Origin: a virus
DNA: 21,407 nt
Direction: 5' to 3' (one strand)
UHGV virus genome: UHGV-0286550
Positions within the stretch are counted from its first letter, which is position 1; every line of letters begins with the position of its first letter. The translations under genes and the position numbers were made by a program. Of the stretch, positions 13,124-13,864 are shown in pieces. Under the pieces are notes generated by a model. It saw nothing but the letters and a program-made list of their open reading frames with translations. It had not been told where the DNA came from and searched no databases.

Positions 13124-13864
13124 ATGCAAAAACAGATTATTGGTAACGCAACGTTGTATTGCGGTGATGTTCTTGATGTGCTGCCGGCGTTATCCGAACG
13201 TTTTGATGCCGTCATTACCGACCCGCCTTACAGCAGTGGTGGTACACACAAATCAGACCGCAGCATGGCCCCTTCGGACAAGTATATCGGTCACACCCAG
13301 TATGCCGAGTTCACCGGCGATAACCGCGACCAGCGCAGCTGGGCGTTCTGGTGTTCCATGTGGATATCTCATGCATTGCACAGGCTGAATTCCGGCGGTT
13401 ATTTCATGGTGTTCAGTGACTGGCGACAACTACCGGCGCTTACAGATGCATTTCAGGCCGGTGGTGTGCTGTGGCGTGGTCTGGTTGTCTGGGATAAAAC
13501 GCAGGCTTCCCGTGCGCCACACACTGGCTATTTTCGGCATCAGGCCGAGTATGTGGTCTGGGGCAGCAACGGAAAACTCGACAAATGCCCGCACGGTGGC
13601 CCGTTCCCGGGTGTGATTACGCAGCGTGTCGTCCCGTCCGAAAAACTGCACATGACCGCAAAGCCGGTTCAGCTGATGGCTGAGCTGGTTAAACCGCTGA
13701 CACCGGATGCGCACGTCCTTGATCCGTTTATGGGAAGCGGCACTACCGCCATCCCTGTACTTGCCCGTGGCGGACGGTTTACCGGCATTGAAATGACTAA
13801 CCAGTATTTTGATATCGCCTGCGCACGTATCGAAAAAGCCCAGACAGAAGCAGTGCAGGTGTGA
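13124..13864 (+). CDS. Orphan DNA methyltransferase, beta-class amino-MTase (N6-adenine or N4-cytosine; 246 aa)
   Basis: Catalytic DPPY motif (ITDPPYSSGG) near the N-terminus and AdoMet-binding FxGxG motif (LDPFMGSGTTAI) near the C-terminus. That order defines the beta class. No adjacent restriction endonuclease gene. Confidence 0.85.
   Translation: MQKQIIGNATLYCGDVLDVLPALSERFDAVITDPPYSSGGTHKSDRSMAPSDKYIGHTQYAEFTGDNRDQRSWAFWCSMWISHALHRLNSGGYFMVFSDWRQLPALTDAFQAGGVLWRGLVVWDKTQASRAPHTGYFRHQAEYVVWGSNGKLDKCPHGGPFPGVITQRVVPSEKLHMTAKPVQLMAELVKPLTPDAHVLDPFMGSGTTAIPVLARGGRFTGIEMTNQYFDIACARIEKAQTEAVQV

Follow-up and report, generated by a model that had tools for sequence, protein, structure and literature searches.

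What is a DNA methyltransferase gene doing directly in front of the large terminase gene of a Mu-like prophage? The gene lies at positions 13124-13864 of the viral DNA analyzed here (UHGV-0286550, 21,407 nucleotides; this whole stretch is called the window), and a first-pass annotation had read it as an orphan beta-class enzyme inserted between the two terminase subunit genes, where it would protect progeny DNA against host restriction. The window represents the leftmost 21 kb of a Mu-like prophage of E. coli; its main features, many of them assigned by Pfam profiles along the plus strand, are as follows.

CI-like repressor gene, minus strand (Pfam)
2123-4165, plus strand, Mu-type transposase A (Pfam)
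4184-5077, plus strand, AAA+ MuB-like ATPase (Pfam)
After the MuB-like ATPase, plus strand, DUF3164, DUF2786 and GemA genes (Pfam)
10144-10611, plus strand, Mor-family activator (Pfam)
Between the Mor-family gene and DUF1804, plus strand, holins and M15 endolysin (Pfam)
12577-13077, plus strand, DUF1804 gene, 166 aa (Pfam PF08822)
13081-13107, plus strand, stem-loop (RNA fold)
13113-13855, plus strand, methyltransferase cassette, 743 bp (alignment of filled and empty sites)
13124-13864, plus strand, predicted solitary beta-class DNA amino-methyltransferase, 246 aa (PF01555, PADLOC, PHROGs)
13220-13231, plus strand, catalytic motif IV, DPPY, residues 33-36 (read from the sequence)
13727-13741, plus strand, AdoMet-binding motif I, FMGSG, residues 202-206 (read from the sequence)
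13856-13865, plus strand, CAGGTGTGAC, 3' end of the methyltransferase gene with the Shine-Dalgarno-like AGGTG of terL
13866-15506, plus strand, large terminase gene terL (phrog_38, TIGR01630)
After terL, plus strand, Mu-type portal, Mu F, virion morphogenesis protein G and Mu I protease genes (Pfam)

A 2-kb query around the methyltransferase gene found matches of 100% identity in seven E. coli records, of which five are chromosomes and two are ~249 kb long, and a near-identity DNA search of named phage genomes gave no match; outside E. coli genomes, where it is a prophage, the element is not known. In E. coli RIVM_C036569 it is a ~35-kb Mu-like myovirus prophage flanked by uspA and dtpB. RefSeq already holds the gene product as WP_001171799.1, "DNA-methyltransferase."

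The order of motifs in the 246-aa protein, with motif IV (DPPY, from residue 33) preceding motif I (FMGSG, from residue 202), is that of the beta class. Its only Pfam match is to PF01555 (N6_N4_Mtase; E 1.7e-24, 87.5 bits against a cutoff of 26.7), and it is matched over its full length by the PADLOC profile MTase_II (PDLC03321, E 2.4e-65) and also by phrog_67 (E 1.4e-53); homologs with E values of 1e-20 or below number 5768. A phmmer search of PDB sequences returned M1.HpyAVI over residues 24-236 (E 5.6e-14), followed by M.BceJIV, CcrM and MboIIA. An AlphaFold2 model built on 37 homologs (mean pLDDT 82.7, pTM 0.83) was compared with solved structures in Foldseek, and the predicted fold agrees with those of beta-class enzymes, the matches being M.BceJIV, CcrM, M1.HpyAVI, MboIIA, PvuII and RsrI (E 2e-15 to 5e-9, TM ~0.7). 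The motifs, the profiles and the modeled fold thus agree with the earlier reading of DPPY followed by FxGxG, and we conclude from sequence and model that 13124-13864 is predicted to encode a beta-class AdoMet-dependent DNA amino-methyltransferase, with DNA as its presumed substrate.

The natural variants that dispense with the gene, described below, might suggest an inactive remnant that has no current function. Against this, the ORF is intact in every carrier, and pairwise dN/dS among alleles of the E. coli, Yersinia and Serratia-type prophages ranges from 0.04 to 0.25, a set in which dS reaches ~2.8, the highest value that the method can compute; values in this range indicate a protein under purifying selection. 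The stretches T32-D-P-P-Y-S-S-G39 and D200-P-F-M-G-S205 are invariant in the 37 homologs, so that the catalytic and AdoMet motifs are both preserved (Serratia-type alleles read FMGSA instead of FMGSG), and the fold is predicted with confidence. We regard a remnant as scarcely credible.

Three narrower assignments were tried and rejected. The CcrM model (NCBIfam NF050803) gave 51.6 bits against a cutoff of 830, in a match confined to the C-terminal 70 residues, and the plasmid-type methylase model PRK13699 (NCBIfam NF010253) gave 76.7 bits against a cutoff of 244. The Hia5/Hin1523/Nme1821 family was ruled out because its members, according to their published description, are alpha-class and Dam-related.

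The target base is most likely adenine, methylated at N6, as judged from the aspartate of DPPY and from the annotation of relatives, within a Pfam family that takes in N4-cytosine enzymes too. This breadth of PF01555 is one reason to consider an enzyme with the same role that methylates cytosine at N4, and the Foldseek matches to the rotifer N4CMT (8s9m, E 3e-14) and to M.PvuII (1boo, E 1e-10) are another. Beta-class N4C enzymes, however, typically carry SPPY or SPPF in motif IV, whereas DPPY is present here and invariant in the family; the N6A enzymes M.BceJIV, CcrM and M1.HpyAVI are its closest matches in structure and in sequence, and JGI labels relatives adenine-specific. An N4-cytosine enzyme is therefore an unlikely alternative. 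As to the recognition sequence, motifs VIII and X are separated by only ~25 residues, which hints at a short, frequent target, and the loop after DPPY is disordered. The literature search found no target motif or methylome for this enzyme or its close relatives in Mu-like prophages of E. coli.

The enzyme is solitary. The first-pass annotation had seen no cognate nuclease nearby, and this was borne out on a wider scale: Pfam and PADLOC identified no nuclease family in the neighboring ORFs on either strand, including small ORFs and those antisense to the methyltransferase gene, the RefSeq/PGAP annotation lists no nuclease across the whole prophage, and the 351-aa gene at the right end of the prophage (see below) matches no nuclease family in Pfam or PADLOC. 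Among species-level loci of the methyltransferase family, a restriction-type endonuclease adjoins the gene in 1 of 62. The strongest evidence for solitary status is a natural indel that takes out the methyltransferase gene alone, and it is to this indel and its surroundings that the argument now turns.

Downstream, the gene is tightly joined to terL. The TGA stop occupies 13862-13864 and the GTG start of terL, which is identical to the RefSeq/PGAP choice, follows at 13866 after one spacer base, just as had been noted before; the identity of terL itself is clear from phrog_38 (E 4.5e-144) and TIGR01630. The segment 13856-13865 comprises the last two methyltransferase codons and the stop, and the AGGTG at 13857-13861, lying within those final codons, is likely the terL ribosome-binding site. 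Alleles that have no methyltransferase gene keep the same junction of CAGGTGTGAC with GTG, and the form CAGGTGT(G/A)AC-GTG is common to the Yersinia and Serratia prophages. Such physical and translational linkage to terL invites the proposal that methylation serves packaging or phage gene control, by marking the pac/end region or a late promoter, rather than anti-restriction, and phage P1 offers a precedent, since there Dam methylation licenses pac cleavage (cited in PMC4190342). On this proposal, the location between terL and the gene of the putative DNA-binding protein DUF1804 would have a function of its own. We return to this proposal once the variants have been described.

On the upstream side lies the DUF1804 gene (PF08822, E 2.4e-52), which matches the "DNA binding protein" family phrog_756 (E 2.6e-67), has no NCBIfam match and shows no match to Mu terS gp27. 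In D3112, DMS3, the JBD phages, KS10 and others, a homolog immediately precedes terL. The earlier placement of the methyltransferase between a small-terminase-like gene and terL holds as regards the position after DUF1804, but the terS part of it is positional, with Mu gp27 unmatched: DUF1804 is a putative DNA-binding protein at the position of Mu gp27, the small terminase, and its own small-terminase role is suggested by that position only. Between DUF1804 and the methyltransferase is a 46-bp spacer, which contains no ORF. Directly after the DUF1804 stop, the stem-loop at 13081-13107 (-19.9 kcal/mol, z -2.45) is found in alleles both with and without the methyltransferase, and its Yersinia counterpart forms a perfect 9-bp stem although the bases have changed. 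We considered it as a terminator isolating the methyltransferase and rejected this, for it is also present in the alleles that have no such gene and it lacks a U-tract, so that it is not a canonical terminator. Its function, between DUF1804 and the genes that follow, may instead be attenuation or the stabilization of mRNA.

When E. coli genomes with this region were compared, 19 of 55 matched the query in two pieces (55-63% coverage), with no methyltransferase annotated and with DUF1804 directly adjoining terL. One further genome of the 55 also fell below 80% coverage, because IS66/IS21-family insertion sequences stand in the place of DUF1804; here the methyltransferase and terL are kept. In E. 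coli RM9088 (locus 1-3716), IS66- and IS21-family elements cut the prophage just upstream of the methyltransferase, leaving methyltransferase, terL and portal genes but neither DUF1804 nor the early region. Alignment of filled and empty sites shows that the 743 bp from 13113 to 13855 correspond to 7 bp, TGTATAC, and that the DUF1804-terL gap is 792 bp in the filled and 56 bp in the empty form; the hairpin on the upstream side and the ribosome-binding site of terL persist in the empty allele. Since the flanks are kept and the exchange is one of 743 bp for 7 bp, the cassette consists of the methyltransferase gene and nothing else. This tells against the packaging proposal: near-identical prophages that have no methyltransferase gene still possess an intact DUF1804 gene, an intact terL and its ribosome-binding site, and packaging therefore cannot require the methyltransferase.

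Whether the gene was inserted, as the first-pass annotation had it, is a separate matter. That description is apt in so far as the cassette is a single gene that can be inserted or deleted as a unit; the order of genes in Yersinia and Serratia, however, suggests an old arrangement from which the gene may since have been deleted. In a prophage of each genus DUF1804, methyltransferase and terL follow one another as they do in the window, with identities as follows.

Yersinia prophage: methyltransferase 80%, DUF1804 87%, TerL 91%, portal 77%
Serratia prophage: methyltransferase 76%, DUF1804 75%, TerL 90%, portal 73%

The methyltransferase has thus diverged about as far as the genes that flank it, which points to an old arrangement and not to a recent insertion in this E. 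coli element; from these sequences, the order DUF1804/methyltransferase/terL would be an old one that has repeatedly been lost or swapped. Its retention in E. coli, Yersinia and Serratia prophages is also what a packaging role would predict. Among 33 IMG/VR loci containing both DUF1804 and terL, the methyltransferase is present in 15, and the gap between the two flanking genes varies from 12 to 1239 bp. We asked whether the prophages without the methyltransferase form one clade and rejected this too: in a neighbor-joining tree of flanking genes, which is poorly resolved, they are interleaved with carriers, and a single loss or gain is accordingly not supported.

The alleles themselves also vary. 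E. coli methyltransferase alleles are 87-100% identical, as against 95-100% for the flanking genes, and the differences are concentrated in a patch of 20 residues, ~76-95 (13349-13408), which reads WCSMWISHALHRLNSGGYF in some alleles and WYSSTLWMSGAARLVRPGGYV in others. Diversifying target recognition was rejected as the cause, because the patch coincides with the motif V/VI helix and not with the recognition region; judged by sequence, it looks like a recombination mosaic and not like gradual divergence. In one database protein from E. coli (217 aa), a holin domain (PF05449) is joined to the C-terminal 70% of the methyltransferase (89% identity); this protein is either from a rearranged prophage or an artefact of assembly or gene calling.

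In transposable phages generally, the junction that the cassette occupies is a hotspot of accessory genes. In Mu the corresponding genes, gp27 (12316-12891) and gp28 (12899-14554), are seven bases apart with no gene between them, in line with the first-pass annotation. D3112 has the reverse-strand orf25 between DUF1804 and terL, and Klebsiella phage ST405-OXA48phi1.1 has three small genes. In Salmonella Mu-like prophages the junction is filled by a 72-aa ORF and a reverse-strand 159-aa ORF instead, and a 61%-identical homolog of the methyltransferase sits between the holin and lysozyme genes (S. enterica locus 4001-4753). In two IMG/VR loci one or more extra genes separate DUF1804 from the methyltransferase: L034 has a 99-aa ORF with a lipoprotein signal (…LVLSAC) at this place (1914-2213), and L037 has other small ORFs.

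More widely, tblastn found homologs in 666 phage records, including Bordetella BPP-1 (Bpm), P2-like Burkholderia phages and mycobacteriophages, and in the P2-like Escherichia phage Chuche the homolog (53% identity) is preceded by a gpCom-like gene. A species-level genome scan gave 79 loci from many phyla, with portal, Mu F, terminase, D5 primase, integrase, HU, repressor and other genes as immediate neighbors; DUF1804 lies upstream in 4 of 62 species-level loci. The varied neighbors, together with the single endonuclease among 62 loci, mark the family as widespread, mostly phage-borne, mostly solitary and found at many genome positions. These surroundings, too, tell against the packaging proposal: homologs lie between holin and lysozyme in Salmonella and near tail genes in P2-like phages, neighbors differ greatly across the family, and the junction hosts unrelated accessory genes as well. 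Taking both sides together, we think it improbable that methylation serves packaging or gene control.

As for expression, the Mor-family gene has upstream of it a strong terminator at 10055-10075 and then a promoter-like site at 10087-10114. The terminator, after GemA, is a bidirectional hairpin of 9 bp, 7 of them GC, followed by a T-run, and the promoter-like site that directly follows has the form TGTACA-16-TATAAT; the region 10055-10114 probably marks the boundary between the early and middle operons. From the holins onward, endolysin, DUF1804, methyltransferase, terL and portal genes are tightly spaced on one strand. No sigma-70-like promoter was found upstream of the methyltransferase gene and no terminator after it, and these two observations, the 46-bp spacer and a stop codon in the terL initiation region indicate that the gene is embedded in the late operon. 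It appears to belong to that operon and not to form a transcription unit of its own, and it would thus be expressed late.

This embedding bears on the view that the gene is an accessory one, expressed in the lysogen for the benefit of host or prophage, through epigenetic control or by guarding host DNA from a nuclease that is encoded elsewhere or brought by incoming elements. Presence/absence polymorphism and a mosaic of alleles are typical of accessory genes, and the other accessory genes of the junction include one for a lipoprotein. A gene that has no promoter-like site upstream, sits behind a 46-bp spacer, lacks a terminator and overlaps the terL initiation region with its stop is nevertheless poorly placed for such a role, and the prophage encodes no partner nuclease. 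We consider this explanation, like the packaging role, improbable.

The explanation that we favor, and think probable, is late self-methylation of phage DNA for the evasion of restriction. With no promoter of its own and only 46 bp separating it from DUF1804, the methyltransferase gene would be transcribed only once the Mor-family activator has switched on the late genes, and with its stop codon inside the ribosome-binding region of terL, its translation would immediately precede that of the terminase. Methylation of the replicated phage DNA by the enzyme would follow, before headful packaging, and progeny genomes would reach the next host already protected from restriction enzymes whose sites overlap the target. 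The role would be that of Mom in Mu, achieved by unrelated chemistry. The anti-restriction benefit is a presumed one, plausible in the light of experimental precedents in other phages (PMC4190342, PMC3299994), and some considerations weigh against it. About one-third of the near-identical E. coli prophages have no such gene, so any benefit must be conditional; synthesis late in the cycle may leave little time to methylate all copies; and the stem-loop at 13081-13107 could lower expression of the methyltransferase.

A more far-reaching version of self-protection can be built on the compactness of the enzyme. With its VIII-X region so short and the loop after DPPY disordered, the enzyme could have a target that is very short or degenerate, in which case the protein might be a broad-spectrum, Mom-like anti-restriction device, its fixed position and translational coupling to terL would time methylation to packaging, and the mosaic at residues 76-95 would be the trace of an arms race. 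We find this version unlikely. Were the target very short, the 246-aa enzyme could serve as a reagent.

The locus adds an example of phages with a solitary methyltransferase as optional, probably anti-restriction cargo, and it identifies the pre-terL junction of DUF1804-type transposable phages as a recurrent accessory slot. Sequenced E. coli strains contain natural pairs of prophages with and without the methyltransferase whose flanks are 97-99% identical, and such pairs would offer a clean test of the contribution that a phage-borne methyltransferase makes to host range. Strains E2348/69 and RIVM_C036569 are among the carriers, and Z1324SEC0014 and UMNF18 are among those whose prophage has no such gene.

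How does this gene compare with known systems? Mom of Mu is similar in its proposed function only, as a late-expressed modification that protects the progeny DNA of a transposable phage. Chemically, Mom is no methyltransferase, its product being N6-carbamoylmethyl- (acetamido-) adenine; the mom gene lies at the right end of Mu and is controlled by Dam, C and the translational activator Com. The window has no Mom-family protein and no com gene upstream of the methyltransferase, which stands in the head operon, and com/mom are absent from the right end of the prophage. The last gene at that end, outside the window and in the position of Mu mom (NZ_CP086627.1, 329161-330216, minus strand), encodes a 351-aa protein that matches phrog_8291, a family of unknown function (E 1e-239), with no match in Pfam, PADLOC or the PDB; it may be an uncharacterized accessory or anti-defense gene.

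Closer in chemistry are the nearly non-specific, Dam-related m6A methyltransferases found in place of mom in the Mu-like prophages FluMu and Pnme1, enzymes that prevent cleavage by many restriction endonucleases (Drozdz et al. 2012, PMC3299994). Hin1523, Nme1821 and Hia5 resemble the window enzyme as orphan DPPY m6A methyltransferases of Mu-like prophages that lack mom. They differ in having the alpha order of motifs, with DPPY near residue 190-194, and the right-end position of mom, whereas the window enzyme is a beta-class PF01555 protein with DPPY at residue 33, encoded in the late head operon before terL.

P2-like phages of Burkholderia also have PF01555 methylases (Lynch et al. 2010, PMC3091744), and a Com-like regulator precedes one of these. 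The enzymes of the P2-like group (KS5 gp20, KL3 gp28, Chuche and Smp131) and BPP-1 Bpm share 43-53% identity with the window protein over >90% of its length, and are likewise solitary, phage-borne and of ~250 aa. Their genes, however, lie among tail or regulatory genes, and several follow a Com-like translational regulator, which the window gene does not. In fold and motif order the nearest solved enzymes are M.BceJIV (8urk), CcrM (6pbd) and M1.HpyAVI (5hfj), with Foldseek E values of 2e-15 to 1e-14; the window enzyme is compact like M1.HpyAVI and does not have the C-terminal domain of CcrM. At ~21-23% identity, the targets of these enzymes are not transferable to it.

The closest parallel in arrangement comes from the lactococcal 936-type phages, in which the beta-class orphan m6A methyltransferases M.Phi93I and M.Phi145I, with the target GGWGA, are encoded between terS and terL at a junction that was called an insertion hotspot; protection against HphI was shown, and a P1-like role in packaging was discussed and rejected (Murphy et al. 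2014, PMC4190342). Compared by arrangement, these enzymes and the window protein are alike in belonging to the beta class (motif IV before motif I), in orphan status, in their place before terL at a hotspot junction and in being optional, the 936-type genes being absent from most relatives. They differ in that the 936-type phages are virulent cos siphoviruses of Lactococcus and that the terS families are unrelated. With the junction an accessory hotspot and with this precedent, the emphasis that had been placed on the position as unusual was overstated: the gene is one more solitary phage methyltransferase carried as optional cargo, correctly annotated already, in an arrangement of a kind known from the 936-type phages.
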